A stretch of 64,000 nt of DNA. It comes from an uncultured delta proteobacterium (GTDB lineage Bacteria > Myxococcota_A > Polyangia > Polyangiales > Polyangiaceae). Each line of letters opens with the position of its first letter. Position 1 is the stretch's first letter. Position numbers and translations under genes: made by a program. The stretch is taken from assembly GCA_963716725.1 (NCBI GenBank), contig CAVQUB010000021.1, positions 384,440 to 448,439 of the forward strand, written 5' to 3'. The notes under the pieces are model-generated. The model did not search any database, was not told the origin of the DNA, and saw nothing but the letters and a program-made list of their open reading frames with translations. Shown here piece by piece: positions 5,185 to 60,672 of this stretch.

Positions 5185-6254
5185 GACGCGGGCCTTTTAC
5201 GGCCTGCAGTTTCATCCGGAGGTGACCCACACGCGCCAGGGCGGGCGCATCCTCGAGCGTTTCCTGTTCGAGATCTGCGGCTGCGAGGCCTGTGGAATCC
5301 GCGCAGCATCATCGATGACGGCATCCAGCAGCATGCGCGAGCAGATCGGCGACGGCCGCGTGGTTCTCGGCCTGTCCGGCGGCGTCGATTCGTCGGTGGT
5401 GGCGGCGATGCTGCACCGGGCAGTCGGCGACCGACTGGTCTGCGTGTTCGTCGACAACGGCCTGCTGCGCCTGCACGAGGGCGACCAGGTGATGGCGACC
5501 TTCGCCGAGCACATGGGCGTTAATGTCATCCGGGTGAATGCCGAGGACCGCTTCCTCAAGGGCCTCAAGGGCGTGGCCGATCCGGAGCAGAAGCGCAAGA
5601 TCATCGGCAACCTGTTCATCGATATCTTCGAGGAGGAGGCGGCCAAGCTCGAGGACGTGGCACTTCCTGGCACAGGGCACCATCTACCCGGACGTGATCG
5701 AGTCGGCCGGCGCCGCATCGGGCAAGGCGCACGTGATCAAGTCGCATCACAATGTCGGCGGTCTGCCGGACTACATGAAACTCCAGCTGGTCGAGCCGCT
5801 GCGCGAGCTGTTCAAGGACGAGGTGCGGCGGATCGGCGTCGAGCTGGGCCTGCCCTCCGAGATGATCTACCGCCATCCGTTCCCGGGCCCTGGGCTGGGC
5901 GTGCGCATCCTCGGCGAGGTGCAACAAGGAGTACGCCGACATGCTGCGCCGGGCGGATGCGATCTTCATCGAGGAACTGCGCAAGGCCGATCTGTACGAC
6001 GAGGTCAGCCAGGCCTTCGCGGTGTTTCTGCCGGTCAAGTCGGTCGGCGTGGTCGGTGACGCACGGCGCTACGAGTACGTGATCACGCTGCGCGCGGTGA
6101 AGACCGTCGATTTCATGACCGCGCAGCTTCGCCCATCTGCCGTTCGAGTTTCTCGAGCAGGTTTCGCAGCCGCATCATCAACGAGGTGAACGGCGTCTCG
6201 CGCGTGGCCTACGATATCTCGAGCAAGCCGCCGGCCACGATCGAGTGGGAGTGA
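5185..6254 (+). CDS. guaA: GMP synthase (glutamine-hydrolysing), 3' part; 5' part missing and several frameshifts
   Basis: [57 protein letters not shown] and C-terminal [17 protein letters not shown] (6252-6254), spread over several frames. Confidence 0.95.
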
Positions 6255-6406
6255 CCGGAATTTTTAACACATTGATTTAAAACGATAAAATAAATCCAAT
6301 TGATAATATAATCTGCATCGTCAATGGTATTTTTCATGGTATTTCCGAGTGCTGTAAGGCAGAAAGCAGCAATACCATGAGTGGCAGATTGGCGTAATCA
6401 TGGTAT
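6237..6406 (+). repeat. Junction J1 (attL-like): guaA 3' core plus right arm
   Basis: Core ATCGAGTGGGAGTGA 6240-6254; IHF-consensus TAACACATTGATT 6265-6277; AATGGTAT/CATGGTAT doublet 6323-6342; inverted ATACCATG 6372-6379; CATGGTAT 6399-6406. Confidence 0.9.
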
Positions 6407-6444
6407 CAGCGGTCGGCACTCAGATATCGCGTTCTGAACGAGCA

Positions 6445-6517
6445 TGGCGTGATTTAGGGCTTTAAGCACGCCAAATATGACTATAATGTGGCGTGAATAA
6501 GTGCTAGAATCGCGCCA
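6445..6517 (+). promoter_or_regulatory. Two 29-bp TGGCG-N19-CGCCA palindromes flanking a TATAAT -10 box (putative fic operator/promoter)
   Basis: 6445-6473 and 6489-6517; TATAAT at 6482-6487; same arrangement at 31148-31220. Confidence 0.65.
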
Positions 6518-7663
6518 TGAAGTGGATATGGCAACAGCCCGACTGGCCAGATTTTCGCTATGACAATCGCGCGCTCAATGATCGGGAACTTGAATTTCGC
6601 CTGAACTCAGAGCGCCTGGCGGGCAGCTTTGATGCGCTACCGATGGCGTCCCAAGAGGATGCCACGATTGACTTGATGCTTTCCGAGGCCATCAAAACCA
6701 GCGCCATTGAGGGCGAGGATCTGGACAGAGAGTCGGTCAGGTCATCGCTGCTCTCTTTAATTACATCGGATACGCTACCGGACAACTCAGACCAGAAAGC
6801 TGCTGGGGCTGCATCGCTGCTGGTGGACGTTCGCAAGAACTGGCAAACATCCCTGACGCATGACCTGCTGGGCAAGTGGCAGTCCATGGCTGTCCCGGAG
6901 CAGCGCTACACGTCTATTCTGCGTGGCGCATACCGCAACGATCCTTCACCGATGCAAATAGTGAGCGGGCCTTACGGGCGGGAAAAGGTTCACTATGAGG
7001 CCCCGCCAGCGACTCAGGTGCCTGATGAAATGGCGAAGGCTTATCGACTGGTACAACCAAACCAGTCCTTTGAGCGGGGATAAGACAATACACGGGATCG
7101 CAAGAGCAGGTATTGCTCATCTCTGGTTCGAGGTGATTCACCCCTTCGATGATGGTAATGGTCGAGTCGGCAGGGCGATCGCTGACCATGCGCTTTCGCA
7201 GTCTCTCGGCTATCCAACCACGGCTTGTCTTGCCACGGCGATAGAGGGGGATAAAAAAACCTATTACCTGCAACTGGAGAAAGCGAGTCGTGGAAGCCTG
7301 GATGTTAACGTTTGGCTGGATTATTTCGCAGACACAATAATCAAGGCACAGGAAATTGCCAGGGAAGAAGTGGACTTTGTACTGGCCAAGACACGTTTCT
7401 ACGAAGCCTATGGCGACCAGCTGAATGACCGGCAGGCCAGGATGGTATCGCGGGTATTCGCTGAAGGTCGAAAGGGCTTTGAAGGCGGAATAACGACTAA
7501 AAAATATGAAGCGATTACCAAGTGTCCCAATCGAACGGCCAGCCGTGATCTTTCTGACCTGGTTGCCAAGGGTATCATCATCCCGTTACCAGGTGGTGGC
7601 AGAACAACCCGATATGAGTTGACGATTGTTGAACCGGCTCAGTCTGGTCTGATGAGGAAATGA
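6517..7663 (+). CDS. Fic family protein (DUF4172-Fic-wHTH), single frameshift near 7038
   Basis: HPFDDGNGRVGR motif; paralogue of 31220-32365 with one extra G (aaggctt vs aagctt). Confidence 0.9.
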
Positions 7664-7735
7664 TTTTCTTCGCTCTGGAGCGAGCGATTTTATCTGCACA
7701 AGCCTGAACGATTTAATGAATTTCCATTTTGTCCT

Positions 7736-9112
7736 ATGAACGTCGATACACTCAAAGAAAAACTGGCTGATATCGATGCAGATACCTTGCGGAATTTTAT
7801 ATTCGACCTCTACCTCCGCTATCCGGAGTTGAGCGACAAGATCGAAGCATTGACATTGGCAAATGATCCGGTCGCCCTGTCCAGGGTGCTGCGCAAGCGT
7901 ATTGCATCGCTGAAACGAGGGCGGAGGTTTATCGATTATCGGGCGAGTTTTGATTTTGCACGCGAACTGGAAGCGACCCTCGCCGACATTGAAAGCGGAC
8001 TGCTGGAGCGCTCACCGGAACATGCGTTTGATTTGGTCGACCGGTTCCTGGCGACGGCAGAATCGGTGCTCAACCGTGTCGATGATTCTGGCGGGGCAGT
8101 GGGCGAGGTATATCGCCAAGCCGTACTGTTGTGGTTGACGGCGGCTAAAGGCTGGCGGGATGCCAACGTCGACTGGCTCGAGCGGATATATCAGCTGTAT
8201 CAGCAGAATGATTATGGTGTGCTTGATCCGCTATTGCCAAATGCCAACCTGCTGTTGACGCCGGATCAGCTGAAGCAACTTGCCTGGCGGTACGAAAACG
8301 CGTTGCGCAAGGCGTTAAAATCTCCCGAACAAGAAGACAAACTCAATCTCGTGGCCTTGCGTAGCGGCGTGGCATTAGGACAGATAGCCGATGCCTTGCG
8401 TGATCCTGCCTTATACGAGCGATCGGTATTGATACATTCGCCACAGCCAAACAATCTGCAAATGAAATCGATTTGTGAAAAATATTTGCAGTATGAGCAG
8501 CCCGAGACGGCAATGCGTTATCTGAACCAGGCATGGGAGGACCGTTTTGAGCGTGATCGTCTGGAATTGCTGGATAAGGTCTGTGTGAAAACGGGTGACC
8601 GGAAACAGCTTAAAGTGATTCGTTCTCGGCTGTTTCAGAGCGAGCAGAGCTACCCCAGTTTCACGCGATATCTGGAGGCCTTGGACGAGGATGAGAAAGA
8701 GAAAGCGTGTAGCTCAGCAATCAAGCAAGCCGAACAGAGTGGCAATATCGTACTCAGCGCAGATCTGTTATTAAACCTGAGCCAGACGGAGAGAGCTCAG
8801 GCCTTAGTCTTAGCTCGGCATCAGGAGTTGGCGGAGTGTTTTTATGACAGTCTGCTGAGGCTGGCCAAGGCGTTTGAAAAAGCGGATTGCAATCTGGCGG
8901 CTACGGCGTGCTACCGCGCCTTGTTGCTGGATATCCTGGCACAGGCGCGCAGTAAGGCTTACGGCCATGGTGCACGGTACTATAAAAAGCTGGAAGCGCT
9001 GGCGAAGCGGATCAAGGAATTCAAACCACTGCCAACACATCACGCCTTCGTGCAGCAATTGCACTCGGCGCATGGGCGAAAGAAAAGTTTTTGGGCGCGA
9101 CTGGAATCATGA
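7736..9112 (+). CDS. Helical hypothetical protein (DUF6880-like)
   Basis: 458-aa ORF; RVDDSGG.VGEV, ARSKAYGHGARY and HGRKKSFW motifs. Confidence 0.65.
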   Translation: MNVDTLKEKLADIDADTLRNFIFDLYLRYPELSDKIEALTLANDPVALSRVLRKRIASLKRGRRFIDYRASFDFARELEATLADIESGLLERSPEHAFDLVDRFLATAESVLNRVDDSGGAVGEVYRQAVLLWLTAAKGWRDANVDWLERIYQLYQQNDYGVLDPLLPNANLLLTPDQLKQLAWRYENALRKALKSPEQEDKLNLVALRSGVALGQIADALRDPALYERSVLIHSPQPNNLQMKSICEKYLQYEQPETAMRYLNQAWEDRFERDRLELLDKVCVKTGDRKQLKVIRSRLFQSEQSYPSFTRYLEALDEDEKEKACSSAIKQAEQSGNIVLSADLLLNLSQTERAQALVLARHQELAECFYDSLLRLAKAFEKADCNLAATACYRALLLDILAQARSKAYGHGARYYKKLEALAKRIKEFKPLPTHHAFVQQLHSAHGRKKSFWARLES

Positions 9113-9185
9113 TGTGCCGAAGCCTGCAGCACGGCATGGGGTGGCTTCTCGACATTTCCGGTGAGTATCAGCAGCAATTTCTGAA

Positions 9186-9278
9186 CATGGTATTTTTCAT
9201 GGTATTACCGATTAGCAGGAAAATAAGCCATTGAATATAAAAGATAAAAATGGCTCGTTTACAATCGAGTGGGAGTGA
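9186..9278 (+). repeat. Junction J2: left arm plus core, no standard right arm
   Basis: CATGGTATTTTTCATGGTAT at 9186; core 9264-9278. Confidence 0.9.
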
Positions 9279-9758
9279 CTGGCACTCGCAGGCAACTACA
9301 GGAACCAAAAGCACAAAAACTTGCGTAATTCATCAGTCGGCTGGAACTATCTCTGGAATATCGGCGAGCGGAACAGAGGGTGACAGCCCCATCTTCCAAA
9401 TCCTGACGTGGACGTCGGCGAAGCGTTTTGACGTCTGTAAGTGCGGATTTCTTGCTCATGAGTCCCCTTGTTGAATCGGGCCGTCGTGATCGACGCTCAC
9501 GACGATCTTGTGCAGCGGCACGCTGGTCTCCCCGGCGCTCCGTGAAAAGAGTCCGCGTAACATTGGAGCTCCAGTCTGTACGCCAGCGCACCGTAGCGAC
9601 TTCGCCCCGCGGTCGTTGCGAGAGCAGTGTGCAAGATTGTCGCGCTCGAGGCCGAAGAATTCGACGTTCTGACGGGCATCGGTGAGCAAGCGACGATGAA
9701 AACTAAGCTGAATTTCGATCTGCAAGCACACCGGTATTGTCAGGCTGGCTGAATACAC

Positions 9759-11396
9759 CTAGCGGGCCAAAGCACGTGCAACTGCAATGGACGTGAGCGG
9801 GTGGTACTGCCCGAAATACATCGGCGGCGGCACCAGCGACGGTTTGACGAATTTTTTCACCGCCTGGATCGCGCCCAACACACTGTACTCCGTGGTGAAC
9901 ACAATCCCCTTGGGAATCTCTACAAACTGCCCAAGGAGCGCGAAGTTCTTTGAACCCGCCGGCACCACCGCGGGCCGGTCGCCCTTAGCTCTGCTGAGAA
10001 ACTGGCTGGTGCTGTAGGGCAGCAGGCAAGGGATGCAGGTGGAGGTGTCGAGGATCTCATTTTTCTCCCCCTCGTCCTGGTCGAACTGCAGGTGACCCAA
10101 CAACTCCTCCAGAATCTCGCGACCTGTGCACTCGGGCATGGTCTTCTTCACGAACGTGCCAATGTTGTCGCCGCCTAGTGCCGTCACCCAGATGACGCAC
10201 GTATCGCGGGGTTGGTCGGGGAACAGGGGCTGGCGGTACGTGTGCAGGTGCAGGATCCACGGGGACGCTGTGATGGGCAGCGGGCTCTGACGACCCATCT
10301 GGCGCTCCACCAACCACTCGAACTTGCGCTGGAACAATCCGCCGCGAAAGGTGACGGTGAAGGTCATCATCGTGGACTGCGAGATGTCGCGCAGGAACTG
10401 GTCGGGGCGGCCGAAGTCGGGCTGCTTGGCGGCAATCTTCTTCCACAGCGTCCACGCTCCGCCCAGGTTCTGGCTGCCGACCGCGGGCTTGTCCACCGGG
10501 CGGTCATGGGCACCGAACGAGGCGTTGCTGACGATGGAGCCGATGGTCAGGAAGACGAGGTCGGTGTCGCGCACCTGGATAGAGGGCTTTGCCTTGCCGC
10601 TCTCAGTCTCGAGGTGGATGCGCTCAATCCACCTCTCCTTGCCGCCGGAGTGCATTTTGAAGTCTACGTCTGAGATCCTGCAGTTGTAGTGGAAGTTCAC
10701 GCCCTTCTTCTGCATGAAGCGCAGGGCGGGCAGTATAAAAGAATGGAAGTTGGTATAGCGAGTACGCTCCAAAGCGACCATCGTGTTCATGTTTGGCATC
10801 TCGTGAAAGAAGAGGTGCATGTAGCGCTTCATCTCGACCGCTGAATGCCACGGCTGGAAGGCAAAAAGTGCCCGCCACATGTACCAGTAATTGCTGGTGA
10901 AAAAGGCTTCTCCAAAGATGTCCGTAATCTTTGCACCGTCTGGAATCAAGAACTCTGGTGTGACCAGAAGTCTTGCCATCTTCAATTTTTCAGCAGTGTT
11001 GAGACCAAGTTGATATCCGGTGTCCTTCTTACCATTCTCATGCAGAAGGCGAACGACAGTGTGAACTCTGCATTCTTCACGGTTCTTCTGATGGTCTTGT
11101 AGACACGATTCATCATCGTTGTACGGAATAATGGACCACAGTTCTTTGGTGCAGGGATATACCTTGTCTTCAAACATGCGACTGCCTTGCATAAAGTACG
11201 CCGGTTGGTCGTTCACTATCATCTCTGAGGCATCACAGCTTCCTCCAACAAGGTCCTTGTCGCCCTTTTGCTCAAAGATATGGATATTGGATGGATTAAA
11301 GTCTGCCTTCTGGATCAAATACATTGCAGCAGCAATGGAGCCCAAGCCGAGACCATTAAGATAAACGTTGACGGAAGAATCTTCTTTGTTTTTCAT
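9759..11396 (-). CDS. Oleate hydratase (MCRA family), divergent copy
   Basis: GLGLGSIAAA, GGSCD, FAFQPWHSAVE, NFALLGQFVE, VFTTEYSV. Confidence 0.85.
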   Translation of the reverse strand: MKNKEDSSVNVYLNGLGLGSIAAAMYLIQKADFNPSNIHIFEQKGDKDLVGGSCDASEMIVNDQPAYFMQGSRMFEDKVYPCTKELWSIIPYNDDESCLQDHQKNREECRVHTVVRLLHENGKKDTGYQLGLNTAEKLKMARLLVTPEFLIPDGAKITDIFGEAFFTSNYWYMWRALFAFQPWHSAVEMKRYMHLFFHEMPNMNTMVALERTRYTNFHSFILPALRFMQKKGVNFHYNCRISDVDFKMHSGGKERWIERIHLETESGKAKPSIQVRDTDLVFLTIGSIVSNASFGAHDRPVDKPAVGSQNLGGAWTLWKKIAAKQPDFGRPDQFLRDISQSTMMTFTVTFRGGLFQRKFEWLVERQMGRQSPLPITASPWILHLHTYRQPLFPDQPRDTCVIWVTALGGDNIGTFVKKTMPECTGREILEELLGHLQFDQDEGEKNEILDTSTCIPCLLPYSTSQFLSRAKGDRPAVVPAGSKNFALLGQFVEIPKGIVFTTEYSVLGAIQAVKKFVKPSLVPPPMYFGQYHPLTSIAVARALAR

Positions 11397-11464
11397 TTTG
11401 GTGTACCTTTCCTTTATTTATCCTTCTCGGTAAAAATCACAAGACTGACATTGAAGAAGCGTGG

Positions 11465-13234
11465 TCAATCGCCCGTGACAAGCCCGAACTCGCGCAGCAG
11501 TGCGCCGATCTGGGTCTTGTCAAGCTTGTTCATCAGCAGGTTACGCAGGAACGCAGGCCCCGGGACGTCGATCTCCTTGCCGTCGCGTAAGCGGCCGGTC
11601 GCACCCAGAAGCATGCGGATGTCGTAGGTGGAGTTGAAGACCTCCGGCACGCCACGCTCGACGTCAAGCAAGGTATAGACAGCTTCCATCGGCGTTCGCA
11701 CGGAATACTCAGTTGTGAAGATGCAGTCGCGCTCCCTGGACTCCGCGAACTGACCAATGAAGGCGAAGTTGACCGCGCCCTCGGGCACCACGTCTGGACG
11801 ATCGCCAGCCTGGCGTGGCATGAAGAAGGCCGTCACGTACGGCATCATCACCGGAATGGTGATGGCGCCGGTTGCGGCCAGCTCAGGGATGTCCTCGACC
11901 GGTACGCCCAGATGGTAGAGCCATTCCTGGGTGATTTCCTCGCCCGTGCAGTCCTGCATGGGCTTCTTCACGTAGTCACCCGGCTTCTCGACGAACAGCC
12001 CGTAAACCCACACCACGATCTGGTCCTTGGGCTGGGCCTTGAAGTGCGGCTGTCGGTTTACCGTCCAACTGAGCAGCCAGGATGAGTCCCTCGCGGTCAC
12101 GATGCCGCCAGTCACCACCTTGCCGCTGAACGGATCGCGCTTGGCGATCTTCTGGATGTACTTCGGGATGCGCGCATCGAGCGTGGTGACGGTGGCCGAC
12201 TCCCATTTGGTCTCGGGGATGTGCGCGCCGAACACCTCCGGGCGCCCGAACGCCGGATCCTTTGCGGCGATGCGCCGCCAAAGATCCCACGCCGGTGCAG
12301 GACCCACATTGAGATTTGGCGGTGTGTGGTGGTCGCCGTTGTCGGAGTTCTCGGTGAGCGAGCCGATGGTCATGAACACCAGGTCGTCCGGGCCAAGATC
12401 GACGCCGCCTTCAACGGCGTCCCTGCGCCAGTGGATGCGCTTGGCCTGTTTGCGTCCGGGTGCGATGTCGAAGTCGACATCGGTCACCTCGGTGCCGTAA
12501 TGGAACACCACGCCGTGATCAAGCAGCCACTTAACCAGCGGCAGCACCAGCGATTCGTACTGGTTGTACTTGGTGAACTTCAGCGTGGAGAAGTCCGGCA
12601 TGCCTTTGATTTGGTGTATGAAACGGTGCAGGTACAGCTTCATCTCCAGCGCCGAGTGCCACTCCTCGAAGGCAAACATCGTGCGCCAGTACAGCCAGAA
12701 ATTGCTGTTCAGGAATTCCTGACCGAACACCTCATTAATGCGCTTGTTCTCCATTTCTTCGCGGGTGGCCAGGAAGAGCTTGACGATCTCTTTTTGCGCC
12801 TGCTCGCTGAGCGTGAACAGGCCGTCGGTATGCGCGTCCTCGCCCCGATTCATGGTGGCGCGCTGCAAAGAGGAGTTCGGATCGTCCTTGTCGAGCCAAT
12901 AGAACTCGTCGAGTACACTGGCACCCTCGATCTCCAGCGACGGGATTGACCGGTACAAATCCCACAGGCATTCGAAGTGCTCTTCCATCTCGCGCCCGCC
13001 CCGGATGACAAAGCCCTTCTCCGGCTCCTTGATGCCGTCCAGCGCGCCACCGGGCAAGTGTTGCTGCTCCAGGATGGTGATTTGCTTGCCGGGCATCTGA
13101 CCGTCGCGGATCAGAAAGGCCGCGCCCGCCAGTGCCGCCAGACCCGAGCCGACGAACCAGGCCGTTTTGTTCTCTACGCCTTTGGGTTTGCGCGGGCGGG
13201 CGAACGCTTCGTAGTTGCCGTTGCTGTAGTACAT
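11465..13234 (-). CDS. ohyA: Oleate hydratase (myosin-cross-reactive antigen family)
   Basis: Typical start MYYSNGNYEAFARP (ATG 13234), GSGLAALA, GGALDG, RGGREME, FTTEYSVRT. Confidence 0.92.
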   Translation of the reverse strand: MYYSNGNYEAFARPRKPKGVENKTAWFVGSGLAALAGAAFLIRDGQMPGKQITILEQQHLPGGALDGIKEPEKGFVIRGGREMEEHFECLWDLYRSIPSLEIEGASVLDEFYWLDKDDPNSSLQRATMNRGEDAHTDGLFTLSEQAQKEIVKLFLATREEMENKRINEVFGQEFLNSNFWLYWRTMFAFEEWHSALEMKLYLHRFIHQIKGMPDFSTLKFTKYNQYESLVLPLVKWLLDHGVVFHYGTEVTDVDFDIAPGRKQAKRIHWRRDAVEGGVDLGPDDLVFMTIGSLTENSDNGDHHTPPNLNVGPAPAWDLWRRIAAKDPAFGRPEVFGAHIPETKWESATVTTLDARIPKYIQKIAKRDPFSGKVVTGGIVTARDSSWLLSWTVNRQPHFKAQPKDQIVVWVYGLFVEKPGDYVKKPMQDCTGEEITQEWLYHLGVPVEDIPELAATGAITIPVMMPYVTAFFMPRQAGDRPDVVPEGAVNFAFIGQFAESRERDCIFTTEYSVRTPMEAVYTLLDVERGVPEVFNSTYDIRMLLGATGRLRDGKEIDVPGPAFLRNLLMNKLDKTQIGALLREFGLVTGD

Positions 13235-13524
13235 GGGGGACTCCCTTGGTTGAGGTTGCAGCGACAGCCGTGGCGCGCGGGGTCTGCTGCGTGTAGGCGA
13301 TGGCACCGACGCGGCGCTTGAACTTCGCGCCGAAGTTGAGCCCGTCCTGCACATGACATGTGCGCGACAACTCTTTCGCAGCAAGTTTACGACCGAGCCT
13401 GCGTGTGCGTCTGTGCGGTGCCGTACGTCTTCAGCCAAGCTGGAGCGCAGGCTCTGGCCACCCTAGTTCGACAGCAACCGTCGTAATTCCCTGATTTGCA
13501 TAGAGGCGACCCTGCCGGCTGCCA

Positions 13525-14260
13525 CTACAACAAGGACAGTTGGGTATCTTGTGTCGGCTTCTTCAGGATCAGCGCGGCCAGGACGCCGGCCTGTTGGGTG
13601 TTGATGGCGGTGATGCCCGAGATCGGCGCCGCCTGGTTGATGCTCACGCGGTGGCGTTGAATGCGTCGCAGCGAGCCAGTGCCTTTTCGGGACTGAGATC
13701 GCTCTTGGTTAGCTTCAGTCGCTGGCGCATCACCCGGTAGATGATCAACGCCATGAAGCACAGCATGGCGTGCGCGCGGATCCGCTCGGCAGCCGGTGGT
13801 ACACCGGAGCGATCTCGATTTCGGACTTGAGCACGCGGAACCCGCGGAACCCGCGTTCGATGTCGGCCAGCGCCTTGTAGGGCTGCACGACCTTGGCCGG
13901 CGTCAGGTCGGCCACATTGGAAACCAGCAGCAGCTTGCCGTCCATCAGCTCGGCCTGCGCCAGTGCTGGCTCGTCCACCGTATAGCTGAACAGCTCGCTC
14001 TTCAGGTCGACCTTCACGATCCGCACCTGGTGGGCGTCACAGACCTCGTGATACAGCCGCGCCTTCGCGCCACTGCCCGACAGCTTGCGGCACCGGGCCT
14101 TCACGCCTAGGTCTTGTCCGTCGAGCTTGCCGGCCCAGTGGTTGGCCTTTTCCTGCAGCGCGGCGATGGGCTCGCGCCGCAGCACCGTCTACTCCTTCGC
14201 ACTCTCTGGGTGATGCGCCATCACCAAGCGCAGTCCTTGCCAGCAACGCCCGCTTGCGCA
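13525..14260 (-). mobile_element. IS1634-family transposase remnant (frameshifted)
   Basis: DGKLLLVSN, YKALADIERGFR.LKSEIEIAPVYHRL, then IRAHAMLCFMALIIYR in another frame. Confidence 0.75.
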
Positions 14261-14590
14261 CAAAGCGAAGTTAGACCTGGTCAGAAGTCGACTGACCAGT
14301 GTTCAGGCGTAATGAAACCGGGTGCTAATGATGATAACAAAGATGGATCGCCGCAAACTCATTCTGAGTACTTGAGTATCGTCGTTGTGAATGATTTAGA
14401 CCTCTTTAGGCGGTGCGGGATAGATACTGTAAAATAGTTTGCGCCAGCTTTTGACCTTTTAATGGTTAGATGCGGGGAGGGCGTTTTCGCAGGGGCGGCC
14501 GTATTTTGTCCCGGTCGGTTTGATTCTCGACCCTGTTCGCCAGAGCTCTCAGCCAAAGAAATAGGGAAAATTTTTTAAGAAATTTCTGAG

Positions 14591-16198: not shown

Positions 16199-16207
16199 AA
16201 CGAACTG

Positions 16208-18403: not shown

Positions 18404-18447
18404 GGTGGTTTCTGGTTGCTTTACACGCCTGTATTATGAGAGATAAT

Positions 18448-52136: not shown

Positions 52137-52421
52137 CCGCCGGTACACATAGTGGCCGCGGACGTTTCGCAGTCCGCCATGCAGTTCCGCGGATGGATGC
52201 CAAGATCCGGCGCCAACCCTGGTACGGAGGTTCGACTCAGAATTGACGTCTTTTCTCAGCAGCACAAAGTACAGGCCAGCCAGTTTTCGCCGGCGCAGCG
52301 GTTCAGCTAACGCGGTCTGGAGGTGATCGGAGCGCGGTTCAGAACGAATCGGGGCACAGGCTTTCGTGGGCCGACGCGTCTTTTGTGTCTGAGGTGGTCC
52401 GGAATCCGGCGGATTTTTATG

Positions 52422-52668
52422 CATGGGATTTTTCATGGTATTACCGCCGACAAGGACAACGAAGCCATTGATACTGGGCCGAAATAATGGCTCATTTACA
52501 ATCGAGTGGGAGTAGGCAGAATACGTAACACATTAAAATGTAGTTTAATGACAACTCTAATCGATAATATAATCTGTATCATCAATGGTATATTTCATAG
52601 TATTTATTGCGTGTAGCAAGGCAGAAAACATCGATACCATGGGAGGAAGATAGATGCTGGCATGGCAT
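52422..52668 (+). repeat. Junction J9: full attP-like element (247 bp)
   Basis: Doublet 52422; core 52501-52515; right arm to 52668. Confidence 0.88.
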
Positions 52669-52670
52669 CA

Positions 52671-52753
52671 GACCTCAGGTGAAAACTTGTTTGACTTGTT
52701 CATGGCTCCATTCTCTCAAGAGTTGAAGCCTTCGCGAAACCCGGGGCGGTTCA
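52671..52753 (-). mobile_element. IS3-family (IS51-group) left-end remnant
   Basis: TGAACCGCCCCGGGTTT end, GGAG RBS and orfA start MNKSNKFSPEV. Confidence 0.7.
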
Positions 52754-52778
52754 AAACTTTTCTCTGCTGGGGTATTGG

Positions 52779-53147
52779 TTAGGCATGAGCTTGAGGCGGT
52801 TTGATCAACGACTCAGCCGGAATGCCCAAGCCTTCGTGGAGTTTCCAGATCATCTTCAAAGTCAGCGAGCGCTTGTGATTAAGGATCTCGTAAACGCGAT
52901 TACTTTTGCCGATCATGGGCTCTAAGTCTTTTACAGTTAAGCCCTTGCGTTCCATTTCGAATTTGATCGCCTCAACAGGATCTGGAAAATCCATCGGGAA
53001 GTGCCTGGCTTCATAAGCCTCAATAAGCGTGACCATCACATCCAGCTTTTCGCCTTCTGGCGTATCTGGTCCAGCCATCATCAGGCTTTCAATTTCTTTT
53101 AATGCCGCGCGGTAGTCGGCATCAGTTTTAATCGGTTTGATGTCCAT
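52779..53147 (-). CDS. higA: HigA antitoxin
   Basis: IKPIKT..DY..AL, PDPVEAIKF.ME, RSLTLKMI.KLH.GLGIPAESL. Confidence 0.9.
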   Translation of the reverse strand: MDIKPIKTDADYRAALKEIESLMMAGPDTPEGEKLDVMVTLIEAYEARHFPMDFPDPVEAIKFEMERKGLTVKDLEPMIGKSNRVYEILNHKRSLTLKMIWKLHEGLGIPAESLIKPPQAHA

Positions 53148-53164
53148 CGTTAATCCTCCGGCAG

Positions 53165-53467
53165 TTAAATGGTTTGCACATCAATCTTGTCGTACTGCGC
53201 ATGGGTGCCAATAAAGCGGATGTATACAACCCTGTAGGTGTAGTTGATCCACACGACAAGTCGATACTTGTTCCCCGCGATATTGAACACCACTCGGCCA
53301 TCCTTGAGGATGCTGGCATTTCTGAAGTCCTGCTTTACCTCGGCAGGTGAGTTCCAGTCAGCATGCGAGGTGTGACGGTGCCAAGCCAATGTTGGCTCCT
53401 TGGCATCCTGATACTTCGGGTTCTCTTCCCAGAAGGCTTTCAGCGTCGACAGTGCGATGATTCTCAT
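53165..53467 (-). CDS. higB: HigB toxin
   Basis: MRIIALSTL, RVVFNIAGNKYRLVV, IRFIGTHAQYDKID. Confidence 0.9.
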   Translation of the reverse strand: MRIIALSTLKAFWEENPKYQDAKEPTLAWHRHTSHADWNSPAEVKQDFRNASILKDGRVVFNIAGNKYRLVVWINYTYRVVYIRFIGTHAQYDKIDVQTI

Positions 53468-53481
53468 GTATTCGTAATAGT

Positions 53482-53498
53482 AGTCCCAAAATGGGACT
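53482..53498. promoter_or_regulatory. higBA operator palindrome
   Basis: AGTCCCA-AAA-TGGGACT about 15 bp upstream of higB. Confidence 0.65.
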
Positions 53499-53634
53499 TT
53501 AGCAACAAGTTTTCGGCTAGACACAGACTTGGCCGACATCATCAACTTGGGTATCCGCATGAAATTGTGTTCGAATGAGACATTGAGTGTTTACGGATTT
53601 GTGGAAAAAGAGTTCATTTCAAGAAATTTCTGAG

Positions 53635-53719
53635 CATGGTATTTTTCATGGTATATGTTGTGCGTAGCAAGGCATAAAACATCGATACCATGAGAAGAAA
53701 ATTGAGTTTGGCATGGTAT
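53635..53719 (+). repeat. Junction J10: collapsed element lacking the core
   Basis: Left-arm context (TTTCTGAG-CATGGTATTTTTCATGGTAT) joined directly to the distal right arm (ATACCATG..CATGGTAT). Confidence 0.85.
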
Positions 53720-53769
53720 CAGGGATCTTGAACTGCAGGTGCTTTTGGGTAATCTGGAATCCGGTCAAG

Positions 53770-54287
53770 TGACTCTCGCCATTGACACCCTTTGGGTTTC
53801 TCAGATCCCTTTATACAGCTGGTAACTCGAAGTAAGGCTGCTGCCTCCATTGAGGCATCCAACACCAATCCCTATCTGTTCCGCCGCACTGAGTATTACC
53901 TGTTTGAGCAAGGCCCTCAGCCCGCTTTCGGCCATTAAAGACATGATCGGCTCCCAGACCACGAAGAGGATACATGTCCTTGCTCGTTTTGCGCCGAAGA
54001 TAGTGGAGTGCGGCGTCTGGAGTGACGGCAGCAATCTCACCACCATTGAGGCATATCCCTCGGCCTGCAAACGCTCAAAAACCATTCAGGCTCTGCGCCG
54101 GCCTTACCTCGCGCTCACTCATGCAGACTGCGAGGATGCTCTGACCTGTGCCTTAGTCGCCACTCTGTTTGCGGAAAAGCGGAGTGCTCTTATGCCGCCA
54201 GAGACTGACGTTTCCCCAAACGAGGGCTGGATATGGGTGCCCAGGGACGCTTTTGTTCAGGATGCTGCGTCATCAGACTGCACATAG
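53770..54287 (+). pseudogene. DUF429-like fragment
   Basis: TLAIDT.., IEAYPSA, DALTCAL, EGWIWVP; 5' end missing. Confidence 0.45.
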
Positions 54288-54378
54288 TACTGTGGATCTG
54301 CTAAAGGACACGAGGTGGAAAATTCAGATATATGCTTGAAATACGGCATGAATTCAGGTTTATCCGGGACCCGGTAAC

Positions 54379-54432
54379 TATATTCGGTTGATGTAATATA
54401 TGGCACAGGGTATATTCGGCTGCATGAATATA
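54379..54432. promoter_or_regulatory. Two imperfect palindromes (putative ArsR operators)
   Basis: TATATTCGGTTGATGTAATATA and TATATTCGGCTGCATGAATATA, the second overlapping the arsR ATG. Confidence 0.55.
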
Positions 54433-54777
54433 TCCCCATTAACGCTATACTCCGCCATCGCGCACGAAATACGTCTGCGCTGCCTGCTTCTTCTCCTTGA
54501 ACATGGTGAACTCTGCGTCTGCGAGCTAACGCACGCCATCGGTGCAGTTCAGCCGACCATTTCCCGTCATCTTGCTCACCTGCGTGAGGTGGAATTGGTG
54601 AGCGATCGCCGAGAGGGCCTGTGGTTCCACTATCGGATTCATCCCGAGCTCCCAGCTTGGGTAACCAACGTGTTGCGAGAAACGGCTGATGGTGTGAGTG
54701 GACTAGCACCGTTTACGGAAGACCTGGCCGCATTGAAAAACATGCCGAATCGCCCCGGCGCACCCCGGTGTGCTTGA
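54424..54777 (+). CDS. arsR: ArsR family repressor
   Basis: ELCVCEL, QPTISRHLAHLR, RREGLW. Confidence 0.9.
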   Translation: MNISPLTLYSAIAHEIRLRCLLLLLEHGELCVCELTHAIGAVQPTISRHLAHLREVELVSDRREGLWFHYRIHPELPAWVTNVLRETADGVSGLAPFTEDLAALKNMPNRPGAPRCA

Positions 54778-54844
54778 TGATGAATCGCTGTTTCGCGCCA
54801 TTCGATGTTTATCACCTGTCGTTCGGTTGTCGTAGGAACTGATC

Positions 54845-55381
54845 ATGATGGTTCAACCGTTTAACGTGCTGTTTCTCTGCACCGGCAACTCTGCCCGAAG
54901 TATCTTCGCTGAGTGCTTGGTTAATCATCTGGGCCCGGGGAGATTCCGTGGCTACAGTGCGGGCAGTCACCCAAAAGGTGAAGTCCACCCGCTGACGATC
55001 CGCGAGTTGCAACATAATGGTTTGCTTACCGATGGACTGCACAGCAAGGTCATGGCGGAATTCGAGAGGCCTGGCGCCCCGCAGATGCACTTCGTCTTCA
55101 CCGTCTGTGATCAGGCGGCCGCGGAAGTCTGTCCGGTCTGGCCAGGTCATCCGATGACGGCGCATTGGGGTGTTGAGGACCCTGCCGCCGCGAATGGTGA
55201 TGAACGCTCAAAAGAAGTGGCATTCGCGAAGGCGTTCCATGAACTTCGAAACCGTATCGACATCTTTGTCGATCTTCCGCTCAAATCCTTCAGTGAGCCG
55301 CGTTTAAAGGAAAAACTGGGGGAAATTGGCCGTGTTGCGCTGGCGAACCCCGGCCCCGAAGAAAAGGGAGACGGACGATGA
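54845..55381 (+). CDS. arsC: Arsenate reductase (LMW-PTP type)
   Basis: LFLCTGNSARS, TVCDQAAAEVCPVWPG, HWGVEDPA. Confidence 0.9.
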   Translation: MMVQPFNVLFLCTGNSARSIFAECLVNHLGPGRFRGYSAGSHPKGEVHPLTIRELQHNGLLTDGLHSKVMAEFERPGAPQMHFVFTVCDQAAAEVCPVWPGHPMTAHWGVEDPAAANGDERSKEVAFAKAFHELRNRIDIFVDLPLKSFSEPRLKEKLGEIGRVALANPGPEEKGDGR

Positions 55382-56481
55382 GTGCCCAATGTGAAGTGAC
55401 CGCCAAACGGGCTGCGGGCAGCTCGATGAGTTTGTTCGAGCGTTACCTGACGGTGTGGGTTGGGCTGTGCATCATCGTGGGCATCGCGCTGGGGCACTGG
55501 TTCCCGGCGCCATTCCAGTCTATCGGCCAGATGGAACTGGCGCAGGTGAACCTGCCGGTGGCCGTGCTGATATGGCTCATGATCATCCCGATGCTGCTGA
55601 AGGTCGACTTCGGGGCCTTGCACCAGGTGAAGGAACACTGGCGGGGCATTGGCGTGACGCTGTTCATCAACTGGGCAGTTAAGCCTTTCTCGATGGCCTT
55701 GCTCGGCTGGCTTTTTATCCGTGTTGTCTTTGCTCCATACCTTCCGAGTAATCAGCTCGATGCCTATATCGCCGGATTGATTCTGCTTGCGGCCGCTCCC
55801 TGTACGGCCATGGTTTTCGTCTGGAGCCGCCTTTCAGATGGTGACGCCAACTTCACTCTGACCCAGGTGGCCTTGAACGACACCATCATGGTCTTTGCGT
55901 TCGCACCGATCGTCGGACTTCTACTCGGCCTGTCAGCGATCACCGTGCCCTGGGATACGCTCTTCCTGTCGGTCGTGCTCTATATCCTGTTGCCGGTGCT
56001 CTTCGCCCAGTGGTGGCGGCAACGCCTGCTCAACCAGGGTGGAGAAGCGGTTTTGAAGACGTGGCTCGATCAACTGCATCCGCTCTCGCTTGCTGCACTG
56101 TTGGCAACGCTGGTACTGCTGTTCGGTTTCCAGGGTGAGCAAATCATCAGCCAGCCGCTGGTCATCGTCATGCTTGCGGTGCCGATCCTGATCCAGGTCT
56201 ACTTCAACTCCGGTCTGGCCTATCTGCTGAATCGCCGCTTTGGCGTGGCGCACTGCGTGGCCGCTCCCTCGGCCCTGATCGGTGCGAGCAACTTTTTTGA
56301 ACTCGCGGTTGCCGCGGCTATCGTCCTGTTCGGTTTCGATTCGGGCGCGGCGCTCGCGACCGTGGTCGGTGTGCTCGTGGAAGTGCCGGTGATGCTGTCG
56401 GTGGTGAAAATCGTCAACGCCACGCGGGACTGGTACGAACGCGGTGCCATAACGACCAACACCTACGAGGAAGACAAATGA
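55378..56481 (+). CDS. acr3: Arsenite efflux transporter ACR3
   Basis: FERYLTVWV, AAAPCTAMVFVWS, GASNFFELAVA, GVLVEVPVML. Confidence 0.93.
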   Translation: MSAQCEVTAKRAAGSSMSLFERYLTVWVGLCIIVGIALGHWFPAPFQSIGQMELAQVNLPVAVLIWLMIIPMLLKVDFGALHQVKEHWRGIGVTLFINWAVKPFSMALLGWLFIRVVFAPYLPSNQLDAYIAGLILLAAAPCTAMVFVWSRLSDGDANFTLTQVALNDTIMVFAFAPIVGLLLGLSAITVPWDTLFLSVVLYILLPVLFAQWWRQRLLNQGGEAVLKTWLDQLHPLSLAALLATLVLLFGFQGEQIISQPLVIVMLAVPILIQVYFNSGLAYLLNRRFGVAHCVAAPSALIGASNFFELAVAAAIVLFGFDSGAALATVVGVLVEVPVMLSVVKIVNATRDWYERGAITTNTYEEDK

Positions 56482-56835
56482 GAAAAGTACTGCTGTATGA
56501 CGATTCGCGCACGGCGCTCACCTCACGTTTGTACTTCATGCTCAAGCTCTACAGCTTCAAAATGGACCGGGTCAAGATTCTCGATGGCGGCACACTCGCG
56601 TGGTCGGCCTTCAATGATCTGGAGAAAGACCCGGTCGAGCACCGCCCGGTACGGTGACCCTGAAGCCTGCCAACCCCGATTTGCTGGTCGAGTGGACGGG
56701 ACGTCTACGACGATGTCGTCTCGCGCCGGGAACCCAATGTCGTACTGCTCGACGCTCGTCCTAAGGATATTTACACCGGCGAGGTGATGCGTCACTCGAT
56801 CCAGGGCGGGCACATCCCGGGAGCGGTCAACATTT
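56478..56835 (+). pseudogene. Rhodanese/sulfurtransferase fragment
   Basis: VLLYDD..SRLYFML..VKILDGG; LLDARP..YTGE..GGHIPGAVNI; frameshifted. Confidence 0.7.
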
Positions 56836-56883
56836 GTAATGAAGGTTTGTACGGATATGCATCGTCGGGTGGGTATTGCGAAA

Positions 56884-58501
56884 GGTAACTTATCTAAACG
56901 GTAAAAGGTGTTGGCGCCGGGTGTAGTTACATTATGATGTAGTGGCTCAACATGCAGCGCCATACTGATTGATTTTTCCCCAAAACTGTTCCCAACGATT
57001 AGACCGCTCCAGGGTTCGCGGACTCAGGATGATGGAGGCACCTTTCTCATTCCACTTCATACCCGATTGGCATAAGCGTTGTTTGACAATCATTTTACAA
57101 GCCGCTTCGGTAACACCCGAGCCTATCGGCAAGACCTGCTTAACCAGTGAATAATACCGCATTCTGGCTTTCTGATGAGTGAAATAGGTAACAGCCTTTT
57201 GGAGCTTCTCACGGTTGCTTGTGGATAATTTCCCCACTAACTTTTCTTCGAGCTCTTTCAGTATCCGTCCCGCCGCCCCCTTGAGATGCTTGAGTTTGTG
57301 GCACCGTTCGTCCAACCACTGCTTTTTGCGGGCAGCATCGCGCTTGCCCGGGAACAGCGCCTCACCGGCTTGCGCCAGATATTCGGTCGCATGCCAGAAA
57401 TCGGTCACCTGGATCGAGGTATGTTGGTTCAAAAATGACCCGTTATCCGTCGCACCATCCGCCAAGCCGATATACCGGGCGTCGGGATAGAGTTGCTTGG
57501 TGTGGGCGATTTCCTGGCGCAGGCGCTCCAGAAAACTGGCCTTGCCGTATTCGGGGGTGGCGCCGATATAGGTCGTATGCAATCGCTCACCGGCACTGTC
57601 ATAGAGCGCCACGGTGCCCACCATGGCGATGCGGTAGCCTTGTTCTCGGAGGTAGATCGTGGTGCCGTCCAGGCCGATACTGACCGTGGCCACCGGTGAG
57701 TCCAGGGGCGGTGTCGCATAGTGCCACTGTTCTTCTTTTGCTTGCGCCAGCGCACCCACCGTCTCTGTGACCTTCTGGATATAACCGCGCGACAGCGCCC
57801 GGCCATGGTTGCTTTGCAGATCCGTTTTCACCTCATCGACGCTGAGCTTCGAGTATTTATGCGACAGCAACTTCGCCAGTTTCGGGGTCGCCCCTTGAAT
57901 GATCCGGGCATCGCGTTCCAAGGGACAAAAGGTCGCCCCACCCTGGGGGCTTTGGTAGACATGGCGTTTGACCCGCGTCTCACCGTAGGGGGTCTGGTAA
58001 GGTTTTTCCACCTGCCCTTTGCTCGTCAGTTTGGTGCTGCCCATTTGGATGGGACTGCCGTCGGTATCAAAGCACTTTAAGAGCTCACCGGTGGCCAAGG
58101 TACCCGCTTCGTTCAGGGCTTGCTCAATGTGTCCCTCTCCCTCCAGCATGGAGCGTGTGAACGGGAGCGTTATTTCGATAACCAGGGTATCCTCTGTGCA
58201 AGAGGTAATTTTGGCAGTCATTTGCGTTCACTTTCTTAAGGTAATTTCGAGAAAGTGTATCATGCCAATTGATAAATCGGTAGAATTATTACATCATGTT
58301 GTAGCTACACCCTTGGCGCCGGCGTTTATGAGTACCGGATTGATTTCGGTCCTGGTTATCGGATCTATTTTTGGCAAGGATTGGGACCGGTTGGTGGTAT
58401 TGCTGGCGGGTGGCACCAAGAAGCGCCAGGACGCCGATATTGCCGCCGCGAAAGAGCACTGGCGTGACTACAAGCGCCGGAAACGGCAAGAGGTGACATG
58501 A
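56884..58501 (+). pseudogene. Second addiction-module toxin: 5'-deleted, IS-interrupted, frameshifted
   Basis: 56884-56918 plus 58321-58501 align with 30267-30479. Confidence 0.85.
56919..58312 (-). mobile_element. ISKra4-family IS (transposase 56947-58221)
   Basis: TIRs GGGTGTAGTTACATTATGATGTA / GGGTGTAGCTACAACATGATGTA; 8-bp TSD TTGGCGCC; DGA, DFWHATEYL, PIGSGVTEAACK, GMKW. Confidence 0.9.
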
Positions 58502-58824
58502 TGGCTCTGACAAAAGATTTTAAGGACACCATTCAAGTACGCGCCCAGCGGGATCCCGCGTTTCGCAAGGCCCTGCTGCAAGAAGGGGTCGAATGCCTGC
58601 TTGCCGGTGATGTCGATACCGGCAAGGCAGTGCTGCGCGACTATATCAACGCGACGATCGGGTTTGAGGAACTCTCCCGGGTTTTCGAAAAGTCGAGCAA
58701 GAGTCTCATGCGCATGTTCGGGCCGAAAGGGAATCCCCAGGCCAGCAACCTGTTTGCGGTGATCCATTACCTGCAGGAGCAGGAGGGTATCCACCTGGAA
58801 GTCAAAGCCCGGAAGGTAGCCTAG
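58498..58824 (+). CDS. Addiction-module antitoxin, second copy (intact)
   Basis: 103 of 108 aa identical to 30476-30802 by direct comparison. Confidence 0.88.
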
Positions 58825-58887
58825 AGAATTGCTGTGCGGCAGCGTTCAATCGGCAATTTTTCCGAGCATTTGGCAGGATTTTCTGAA

Positions 58888-59132
58888 CATGGTATTTTTC
58901 ATGGTATTACCATATACATCAACAATTAAGCCATTGATATTAAATTGAAAAAATGGCTCGTTTACAATCGAGTGGGGTAACCGGAATTTTTAAACATTGA
59001 TTTATAATAATTAAAATAATCTAATCGACAATATAATCTGCATCATCAATGGTATTTTTCATGGTATTTCACGCGCGCTGTAACGCAAAAACCAGTGATA
59101 CCATGAGAGGTAGATTGGTGCTGCCATGGTAT
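58888..59132 (+). repeat. Junction J11: full attP-like element (245 bp), core ATCGAGTGGGGTAA
   Basis: Doublet 58888; IHF match TAAGCCATTGATA; core at 58967; right arm to 59132. Confidence 0.88.
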
Positions 59133-59170
59133 TGAGGGCGCTCGGCTGAGTATGCATATTGATGACCGCT

Positions 59171-60409
59171 TTACGAGCCCCAGAGTGTGGACAGGGGAGC
59201 AGCCCATAGGTTGCTACCCAGAGGCATTGTTTCATCACCATCGTACAGCAGCACACCTGCTGTGAACTGATCACCGGACAGGCTGGCGAGTTTTTTCAAT
59301 CCACGCAGATCTCGCTCTTTAACGGTGGCAGAGACTTTTACTTCGACGCCGACCAGTTGTCCTGCGCTGTTCTCAATCACGACATCAACCTCGAACTTGT
59401 CCGCATCCCTGTAGTACAGTAGCCGATAGTCATCATCAGAGGTTGTCGTGTGTTTGAGTAGTTCACCTAACACAAAGCTCTCCAGAATGTGGTCGTAGCC
59501 TGTTTTGTCCAACTGAACATCTTTGTGGCTGATGCTGGTGAGCATGCCCAACAAACCGGAATCGATGAACTGTAGCTTGGGAGTTTTGACCACGCGTTTC
59601 AAGCGATTGCGTGCCCATACATCAATACGTTTGAGAAGGTACATTTGTTCAAAGACACTGATGTAGCGAGAGACTGTCTTGCCATCGAGACTGACTTGAC
59701 CGCCTAACTCGGAGTAGTTGCACATCTGACCAGCGGTCTGCGCCAGTGCGCGTAGAAAGCGTGGCAACTGATCAAGTTTATCGATTTCGGCGACATCGCG
59801 GACGTCGCGTTGAATAATGGCATCGATGTATTGTCGAGCCCAGGTTATACGACGTTTCGCCGTTGGCCGTGCAACCGCTTCCGGGTAGCCACCGCGTAAT
59901 ACACGTGCGACCAGTTCTTTGCCCAGTACAGGAGGGTCCGCTGTCAGTACTTTTCCGGCAAAAATACTGTCTATCCAGTTCGCTGGTCTGTTCTCGATTT
60001 CGCTCTGCGATAAAGGCAACAGCAACAGGGTTTCCATGCGCCCGGCCAGTGAATCCGCAATCTTGGGCAGCGCCATCAGGTTGGCCGAGCCAGTCAGCAA
60101 AAACCGTCCGGGGCGGCGATCCTCATCGACAGTATTTTTGATCTCCAGAAGCAACTGGGGTACTCGCTGGATTTCATCAATGACGGCGCGATCCAGATTG
60201 CGAATCATGCCGACTGGATCTTCATGCGCCGACAACAATGTCAGTTCATCATCCAGGGTCAGGTAGTACAGTCCACGCTCGGCGAATTGACGCACGAGGG
60301 TTGTCTTGCCAGCCTGACGTGGTCCTGCGAGCAGAACCACTGGGGTATCCAGTAAAGCTTCATCAATTCGTGGTTCAATCCAGCGGGGATACAGGGATGA
60401 TGTATTCAT
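59171..60409 (-). CDS. AAA+ ATPase with DUF4143 (second, divergent)
   Basis: GPRQAGKTT, IDEIQ, LTGSAN, KTPKL.F.DSG, YRD..KFEVD.V.E..VEVK. Confidence 0.9.
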   Translation of the reverse strand: MNTSSLYPRWIEPRIDEALLDTPVVLLAGPRQAGKTTLVRQFAERGLYYLTLDDELTLLSAHEDPVGMIRNLDRAVIDEIQRVPQLLLEIKNTVDEDRRPGRFLLTGSANLMALPKIADSLAGRMETLLLLPLSQSEIENRPANWIDSIFAGKVLTADPPVLGKELVARVLRGGYPEAVARPTAKRRITWARQYIDAIIQRDVRDVAEIDKLDQLPRFLRALAQTAGQMCNYSELGGQVSLDGKTVSRYISVFEQMYLLKRIDVWARNRLKRVVKTPKLQFIDSGLLGMLTSISHKDVQLDKTGYDHILESFVLGELLKHTTTSDDDYRLLYYRDADKFEVDVVIENSAGQLVGVEVKVSATVKERDLRGLKKLASLSGDQFTAGVLLYDGDETMPLGSNLWAAPLSTLWGS

Positions 60410-60578
60410 ACGAATACAACATCGTAAATTACGGAATTAAACAACGAAAAAAACGGAATGTATAGGCGATAAATCTGGAGAGAAAAAGGTAGGCATAAGC
60501 CCGGCTAAAAACAGGGGAGAACTTTGAAACTGAAATTGGAGTAATCGTTTTCAGTAACGATTAGCAGGAATTTCTGAA

Positions 60579-60672
60579 CATGGTATTTTTCATGGTATCG
60601 GCGCATACACCAGAAATAACAGCATTGAAAATACAGGATTTTTCAGGCTTATTTATAATCGAGTGGGAGTAG
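60579..60672 (+). repeat. Junction J12: left arm plus core; right arm absent or degenerate
   Basis: Doublet 60579; core ATCGAGTGGGAGTAG 60658-60672. Confidence 0.88.

Follow-up and report, generated by a model that had tools for sequence, protein, structure and literature searches.

Tandem integrase-less cassettes with GIsul2-like attachment sites behind a gammaproteobacterial guaA gene

At the 3' end of guaA, the integrase (Int) of the island GIsul2 excises and integrates the CR2-sul2 unit, which has no integrase of its own, through the attachment (att) sites of the island, assisted by AlpA (PMC9376610). We analyzed a 64,000-nt stretch of DNA (the window; positions 384,440 to 448,439 of contig CAVQUB010000021.1, assembly GCA_963716725.1, deposited as an uncultured delta proteobacterium) in which a guaA gene is followed by a tandem array of 11 complete modules and a twelfth that runs off the contig end. 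Its units are quite probably non-autonomous, att-bounded cassettes of the GIsul2 integrase system that were inserted one after another, by site-specific integration, into the last codons of guaA in a host of the Sedimenticola family.

Both the principle and the site are already known. The array shares with GIsul2 and CR2-sul2 the site GAGTGGGA at the guaA 3' end, an attR arm of 94% identity, an attLR-like junction at 9264, and an ISCR2 remnant behind a core; CR2-sul2 is likewise an integrase-less unit that was moved there by the Int of the island (PMC9376610). However, one or two units stand there beside an integrase-bearing island, whereas the window holds at least 11 units with no integrase in view, and GIsul2 lacks the compact left end, here called type C, that most window modules carry. 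Cis-mobilizable elements (CIMEs) form tandems at one site and are carried by an incoming integrative and conjugative element (ICE) or integrative and mobilizable element (IME) (PMC5704250); in the window, as in CIMEs, attL and attR are kept and no integration or transfer genes were found. CIMEs are described as decay products, whereas the window cassettes belong to fixed-length families that cross genera and have a left end of their own. The array described in an earlier reading of the sequence alone is real; the principle of the serial integration proposed there was already known as CIME accretion (PMC5704250). The ssrA islands of Dehalococcoides also lie many in tandem behind one gene, and 15 without an integration module were proposed to be cis-mobilizable; in contrast to the window, they rely on a serine recombinase and a tmRNA site, and 16 islands retain their integration module (PMC3146451). 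Tycheposons are likewise found in tandem, with the older ones pushed outward (10.1101/2020.12.28.424599). PIMEs and ICERspD18B are int-alpA elements at guaA and candidate helpers (10.64898/2026.01.12.698999; PMC7775301), but int, alpA, rep, and transfer genes are part of their definition, and the cassettes lack all of these.

Integrons are comparable in their ordered, small, integrase-less cassettes, which are rich in toxin-antitoxin and defence genes and undergo shuffling and fusion. The window differs by the lack of IntI, of an attC signature, and of a stable single-strand fold, and by double-stranded phage-type att sites with arms and no resident integrase seen. We found no description of long integrase-less guaA arrays or of the compact left end in titles and abstract openings, a literature that includes few subscription papers. 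The same searches showed no account of a left end specific to cassettes, of families of fixed length whose order is shuffled across genera, or of an ICE-like helper sharing the right end.

A scan for the 13-mer core with up to two mismatches gave 11 places in the window, against 1.38 expected by chance. Ten are direct repeats listed in the sequence-only reading; the other, at 38447, is unrelated to the array. That reading also listed 58967 as a one-nucleotide variant: this core, missed by the 13-mer scan and recovered by other arm and core searches, is of an indel type, and the one-nucleotide change sits at 40482. The core spacings that it gave (3024, 5406, 4031, 12240, 1551, 7990, 4269, 7750, 6466, and 1691 bp) are correct, and its coreless junction at 53635 is present. 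Profiles built from the window arms identified 11 attR arms, one of them coreless, as well as eight cored compact left ends and a coreless one. We found no hidden junctions within modules and no att arms outside the window in the genome to which the contig was assigned (G000). Only six internal junctions have both arms compact (14670, 18701, 30941, 32492, 52501, and 58967). At 40482 the arm pair has lost 12 nt, at 9264 and 44751 the left ends are truncated ends of the integrase-bearing type, and at 60658 only the first ~85 nt of the compact arm are left. The gene tadA, which in relatives sits behind guaA or behind the array, is not reached within the window, and a decayed left end comes after 60658; the array is therefore open at the contig end. 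Small cassettes carry mostly toxin-antitoxin and defence-candidate genes (Fic, HigBA, RelE-HTH, PDC-S01, PDC-S44), and larger ones ion transport, zinc uptake, arsenic resistance, and MCRA genes, plus later insertion sequences (ISs). The features are as follows, all on the + strand.

3534-5184 (+): GMC oxidoreductase of the main organism of the bin, outside the array, having lost ~110-125 amino acids (aa) at the C-terminal end (Pfam; six same-genus genomes)
5185-6254 (+): gammaproteobacterial guaA, 3' two thirds, with single-base indels, ending in the first att core (87.9% to locus L033)
6240-9263 (+): Module 1; type C left end, Fic/DUF4172, DUF6880, attR arm (Pfam; family K1; 98.4% to L033)
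9264-14669 (+): Module 2; short CR2-type left end, two MCRA-family genes, IS1634 fragment, attR arm (GIsul2 attLR-like junction; Pfam)
14670-18700 (+): Module 3; type C end, open reading frames (ORFs) of unknown function, AAA_14/DUF4143 (PDC-S01-like), antitoxin remnant, attR arm (family K4)
18701-30940 (+): Module 4; type C end, two P-type ATPases, Na/H antiporter genes, Usp, RelE-HTH toxin-antitoxin pair, attR arm (Pfam)
30941-32491 (+): Module 5; type C end, single Fic/DUF4172 gene, attR arm (family K2)
32492-40481 (+): Module 6; type C end, ResIII-type helicase region with a 4.9-kb insertion, DUF4386, attR arm (Pfam)
40482-44750 (+): Module 7; type C end with the 12-nt loss in its arm pair, ZnuA/ABC-3 genes, antitoxin remnant, attR arm (Pfam)
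44751-52500 (+): Module 8; truncated left end of the integrase-bearing type (type A), ISCR2 transposase remnant, PLD, AsmA-like, serine hydrolase-META, attR arm (type A profile, 43 bits)
52501-53634 (+): Module 9; type C end, HigB-HTH toxin-antitoxin pair (family K9; Pfam)
53616-53724 (+): coreless junction; an attR arm and a type C arm, each with its outer part only, joined at the 20-bp arm pair, ~161 bp missing (arm profiles)
53635-58966 (+): Module 10; PDC-S44-like ORF, arsR-arsC-acr3, ISKra4, RelE-HTH pair, attR arm (Pfam)
58967-60657 (+): Module 11; type C end, single AAA_14/DUF4143 gene (PDC-S01-like), attR arm (family K3)
60658-64000 (+): probable Module 12; decayed type C end of which the first ~85 nt remain, OprB porin, mannitol dehydrogenase, truncated where the contig stops; GC about 0.55 (broad type C profile, E 1e-4)

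The core at the guaA 3' end is that of the GIsul2-type att site. To the left of each core, the sequence has matches in 3960 plasmid records, where it corresponds to the end lying upstream of sul2. The best attR arm is 94% identical to this end over 101 bp, and four modules match it at 72-83% over 220-290 bp, three of them at 81-83%, sharing also the tail of an antitoxin gene. Junction 9264 is 90.7% identical to the GIsul2 attLR over 43 bp. Judged by sequence, the right-hand ends are attR arms of the GIsul2 family; the att sites, called phage-type in the earlier reading, belong to a family previously known from GIsul2 and CR2-sul2 (PMC9376610). Ten viral contigs carry the same arm-plus-core, six of them with a P4-type int directly behind.

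The attR arm consists of an arm pair at -77/-78, a site resembling that of the integration host factor (IHF) at -40 (95 of 118 arms), and the core. Three classes of left end face it. In type C ends, the core is followed by an IHF-like site at +25 and an arm pair at +84. An IHF consensus is present at +25 in 89 of 107 distinct type C ends, those of the window included, with 41 exact matches, against ~2 in shuffles. The arm pair stands at +84 in 81 of the 107, a spacing that is partly selected, as the search patterns demanded an arm pair 60-85 nt behind the core; the IHF-like site and the absence of repeats were not imposed by these patterns. Neither TGGCA-type repeats between +13 and +80 nor a terminator-like hairpin occur in any of the 107. 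The nine type A ends, which precede a GIsul2-type int in four phages and five bacteria, carry TGGCA-type repeats; in eight of nine the arm pair lies at +143 to +145, and seven of nine show a terminator-like hairpin. The short CR2-type end has repeats and no arms. The TGGCA-type repeats may be AlpA sites; like the arm and IHF labels, this designation is putative, based on pattern and on analogy to KplE1, whose attL has five sites for the recombination directionality factor in two blocks (PMC2951348). A reversed-pattern control was uninformative, the motif being nearly the same backwards. Among 112 distinct type C ends, the 94 with 1 kb of following sequence have no int within that distance (0/94). 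The type C profile has no match on GIsul2, and no plasmid match extends beyond the arm pair; in viral contigs, two identical weak matches with shorter spacing were left out of the counts. At L308 and L309, a prophage attR at guaA is flanked on its chromosomal side by a compact-type end that is short and decayed.

An arm repeat is shared between cassette ends and integrase-bearing elements. Arms 70-95% alike over 150-280 bp, and left ends such as those of modules 1 and 3, which are 95% identical over 218 bp and lead into different cargo, could also have served homologous recombination, together with the shared toxin-antitoxin ends, after DNA uptake and with no integrase step. The rarity of helpers (6 of 121 genomes, see below) agrees with such an exchange. 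We nevertheless consider it quite unlikely: short divergent homology between genera is a poor substrate, and the arm pairs, their spacing, and the IHF-like site are conserved while the letters of the spacer vary, which argues for selection by a site-specific recombinase.

No recombinase was found in the window, in agreement with the sequence-only reading. Pfam showed none among 60 of the 148 listed ORFs, and a tyrosine-recombinase profile had no match on the six frames, on which positive controls reached E<1e-52. Four guaA-type phage integrases gave a best E of 0.13 by tblastn. Among 18 GIsul2 proteins (Int, AlpA, RepA, RepC, TrbJKL, and ResG included), only ArsC, Acr3, and the ISCR2 transposase matched the window, along with a single weak RepC match (E 0.003); at E<1e-5 there was none for Int, AlpA, RepA, RepC, TrbJKL, or ResG. 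The ISCR2 match is the remnant at 44850-45242 in module 8 (tblastn E 1e-19), a fragment only, with no intact IS91-like (ISCR2) transposase in this module. The arrangement of a GIsul2- or PIME-type mobilizable element, with int and alpA beside attL and with rep and trb genes, was not found in the window. The resemblance to integrons, which had been proposed, is an analogy. No IntI beside an attI was seen, the window having no tyrosine recombinase match and the outer end of the array lying beyond the contig; attC end motifs are absent within 300 nt of all 12 junctions; and the one junction that was folded forms no stable single-strand structure (z 0.60). Rfam detects no structured RNA in the window. 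In the first type C end we found no terminator, and a Pc-like promoter was rejected there, with one promoter-like site against 0.7 expected. In function, the array would resemble an integron served by a phage-type integrase from another element, but it is not an integron.

Junctions with both arms were found at 28 loci in 23 genomes, in Sedimenticola, Chromatiales, the symbionts of Solemya and Lamellibrachia, Haliea, Halioglobus, and Porticoccaceae, and more weakly in Undibacterium and Castellaniella. In metagenomes, tandem junctions occur at at least 128 sites, of which 80 were analyzed. At 80% mutual cover, 68 of 117 complete cassettes fall into 17 families, and 49 stand single; two of the families, as well as a pair within a third, stem from repeats of a single locus. 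Modules 1, 3, 5, 9, and 11 recur end to end elsewhere, at near-constant length and 79-98% identity: family K1 (module 1) has nine members of 2872-3100 bp, K4 (module 3) five of 3988-4038 bp, K2 (module 5) nine of 1387-1628 bp, K9 (module 9) three, and K3 (module 11) six, four of them at 1691-1693 bp. Their order flips: K0 lies before K1 in L033 and after it in L048, and K3 lies before K2 in the genome G002 and after it in the window. At loci also holding guaA, cassette identity exceeds guaA identity in 21 of 22 matches, a comparison in which the indels of the window guaA slightly lower its identity. Units of fixed length that recur in shuffled order therefore indicate that the cassettes travel without an integrase and did not decay in place. 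These data bear out the earlier proposal of non-autonomous att-bounded cassettes moving as units. It had named integrase remnants, module order, and empty sites as deciding signs: the remnants are nearly absent by six-frame profile, the order differs between genomes, and empty guaA-tadA sites exist in relatives.

Decay in place would mean that the modules arrived as autonomous islands, lost int and backbone, and are now immobile. This is the route described for tandem islands in the CIME model (PMC5704250). Four modules do retain the toxin-antitoxin end of the helper presented below, in full or as a remnant, and the left ends of modules 2 and 8 are cut ends of the integrase type. Other arrays contain two distinct N-terminal int stubs, which are the sole traces of a recombinase across 694 kb of genome loci and 320 kb of metagenome loci. 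Decay probably explains the first origin of some cassettes. It is unlikely to account for the array, however: independent loss would not yield the same 1691-, 1551-, 3024-, and 4031-bp units across genera, closer to one another than guaA; no backbone fragments were found in the genome arrays apart from the int stubs; and we found no type C end on an integrase-bearing element that could be a parent (0/94).

The modules are also combined and fused. Composite modules are made of parts that are also found singly: elsewhere the Fic gene, the AAA_14 gene, and the RelE-HTH pair are cassettes in their own right. The genome set has 11 coreless junctions, that of the window included. The median cassette size is 2.6 kb, and 38 of 97 are below 2 kb; in a six-species survey, integrative elements were almost always >4 kb, and only 6% had no integrase traces (bioRxiv 10.64898/2026.01.13.699239). 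Such small integrase-less units escape island finders anchored on an integrase. In Escherichia coli F9792 (L059:18040-21877), guaA is followed by a type C end, two DUF262 genes, and an attR arm over 3.8 kb with no int; 56 of 5426 E. coli genomes match this type C end, one of which was examined. The metagenome loci L136 and L175 carry alpA on the reverse strand with no int in the 3 kb in view, and are possibly excisionase-only cassettes.

Integrase-bearing elements lie directly behind guaA in all six cases with guaA in view (G004, G013 twice, G084, G111, and G068). The core is followed by an in-frame stop in 35 of 35 guaA-adjacent and 66 of 73 internal type C ends, with all three stop codons in use. 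Internal type C ends that restore the guaA stop fit an entry of cassettes at guaA; the letters of the stop could partly be held by the symmetry of the core. The two observations give indirect support to the earlier suggestion that the newest module is next to guaA.

Some integrase match is present in 17 of the 23 array genomes, a full close match only in G013 (two) and G020, and a broken one in G004. Among 121 genomes of the host family, six have an integrase match at E<1e-80, and 14 others have a type C end directly behind guaA; six of 16 guaA loci examined, which were partly chosen for showing the arm, are empty guaA-tadA sites. An integrase close to GIsul2 Int (87%) with alpA stands behind guaA in G111, G084, and twice in G013. 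The element of G111 is the following.

G111:C1 ~4,130,700-4,183,900 (L287-L289): ICE-like PFGI-1-type element with GIsul2-like int and alpA at guaA

Its order is guaA, type A end, int, alpA, ~53 kb with PFGI-1-type ParB, TraD, TraC, and TIGR037xx genes, RelE-HTH, and attR. Over its last ~850 bp it matches the right ends of modules 4 and 10 at 88-91% identity (90.7% over the last 849 bp of module 4). This ICE-like element is one of the likely helpers in the six genomes, with putative transfer of its own. In Sedimenticola sp. BM503 (G013), ~27 attR arms extend over contigs C61, C26, C29, and C80, and integrase-bearing starts lie on C30 and C84. This is a much longer array in a genome that also holds a helper. 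At L174, genes 99% identical to GIsul2 arsH and arsR are followed by an attR arm and a divergent type C end; by its sequence, this locus is GIsul2-like DNA in tandem with a compact-end cassette.

These features suggest how such an array may be built. A P4-type, GIsul2-like integrase from an ICE, IME, or prophage visiting the guaA site would excise and insert the cassettes, new units entering beside guaA and pushing older ones outward. Spread from cell to cell would be mostly in cis, with a helper excising at the outer attR. A ~161-bp deletion between two arm pairs would remove the core and fuse neighbours, and toxin-antitoxin cargo would retain cassettes once the helper is gone. At the type C end, a bend by IHF may replace the AlpA-bound repeats.

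Several points weigh against the proposal of cassettes moved by a GIsul2-type integrase, besides the partly selected +84 spacing and the putative site labels. The 49 single cassettes and six of the 11 window modules have no full-length counterpart. No circle, excision product, or empty site was seen for the strain of the window; circle-like joints in public contigs, such as 9276 to 6285, fit similar arms of other cassettes (16 kb, four runs) and were rejected. A relaxase was detected by TIGR03760 in none of the five helper genomes. The comparison genomes are mostly incomplete, so that helpers may be hidden, and an outer integrase in the same cell is possible, as G000 is not the genome of the host and the array stops at the contig end.

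The genome in which the array was deposited is not its host. The window is the end of contig C21 of G000, a 7.9-Mb genome of 68% GC that carries its own, different guaA on contig C20 and, judging from kinase motifs, may be myxobacterium-like. At window ~5184 (G000:C21 ~389,620), the GMC oxidoreductase stops short and guaA starts mid-gene, a gene being cut on each side, and ~59 kb of gammaproteobacterial DNA follow, attached to the contig end of an unrelated genome. All six same-genus genomes align as far as 5179-5201 and then stop; in all six the GMC oxidoreductase frame runs on to a full C-terminus (660-662 aa in five), and none has guaA at this locus. The join is most likely a misassembly, the simplest reading, a real mid-gene transfer being formally possible. 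Public contigs cover the guaA side from 5184 on and almost nothing to the left of it. The window guaA is 87.9% identical to that of the gammaproteobacterial locus L033, where guaA sits behind guaB, and the family sample of the L033 genome includes Sedimenticola sp. BM503. We infer that guaA and the array belong to a gammaproteobacterium of the Sedimenticola family, a name taken from the relatives of L033. The case illustrates a chimeric contig that assigns a mobile locus to the wrong host. In G000, 19 PF00589 matches were found, none on the window contig, and tblastn gave no guaA-type integrase; since G000 is not the host of the array, these matches have no bearing on the helper. The contig starts G000 C22 1-15000 and C20 1-10000 have a GC of 0.37-0.42 and 0.57-0.58 and are possibly further chimeric joins. 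A continuation of the array on the low-GC start of C20, which has glycosyltransferase-like ORFs, was rejected, as no att arms were found there.

A contig that is chimeric at ~5184, with many indels in the stretch and none of the listed public contig pieces spanning it, raises the question of whether the array itself was assembled from cassettes of several strains. The indels of the guaA stretch differ among public contigs from other sequencing runs. Such an artefact is highly unlikely, since the module ends coincide with the ends of the same cassettes elsewhere and similar arrays exist in short- and long-contig genomes, including the named strain Sedimenticola hydrogenitrophicus SB48, in which type C junctions occur and no close integrase match was found; the doubt is limited to the exact module order in the window.

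A broader proposal is possible, which we advance tentatively. Type C would be a site made for cassettes: its arms are 60 bp nearer to the core and an IHF bend stands in for the AlpA repeats, so that the integrase and the IHF of the host would suffice to cut and re-insert a cassette. In many Gamma- and Betaproteobacteria, among them E. coli, the guaA locus would be the equivalent of an integron with double-stranded phage-type att sites, where a cross-genus pool of toxin-antitoxin, defence, and metal-resistance cassettes is reshuffled by passing GIsul2-type elements, core deletion locks or merges cassettes, and CR2-sul2 would be a clinical escapee. The contrast between types A and C raises the testable question of how an integrase-less passenger sets its own directionality. 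As the same att system spreads sul2, the sediment arrays would form a reservoir for a clinically active integrase.

Two modules deserve additional comment. Module 6 contains a nested 4.9-kb insertion (34075-38994) with a DruA-domain/IS4 transposase fusion, a methylase fragment, and an IS66 transposase, which is absent in L049 and L042. In module 2, two adjoining MCRA (oleate hydratase-like) genes (window 9759-13438) lie in one cassette, present in two other sediment runs. In public contigs, its ends are met at 9267, where the contigs of two runs start, and at 14680, where one contig ends.

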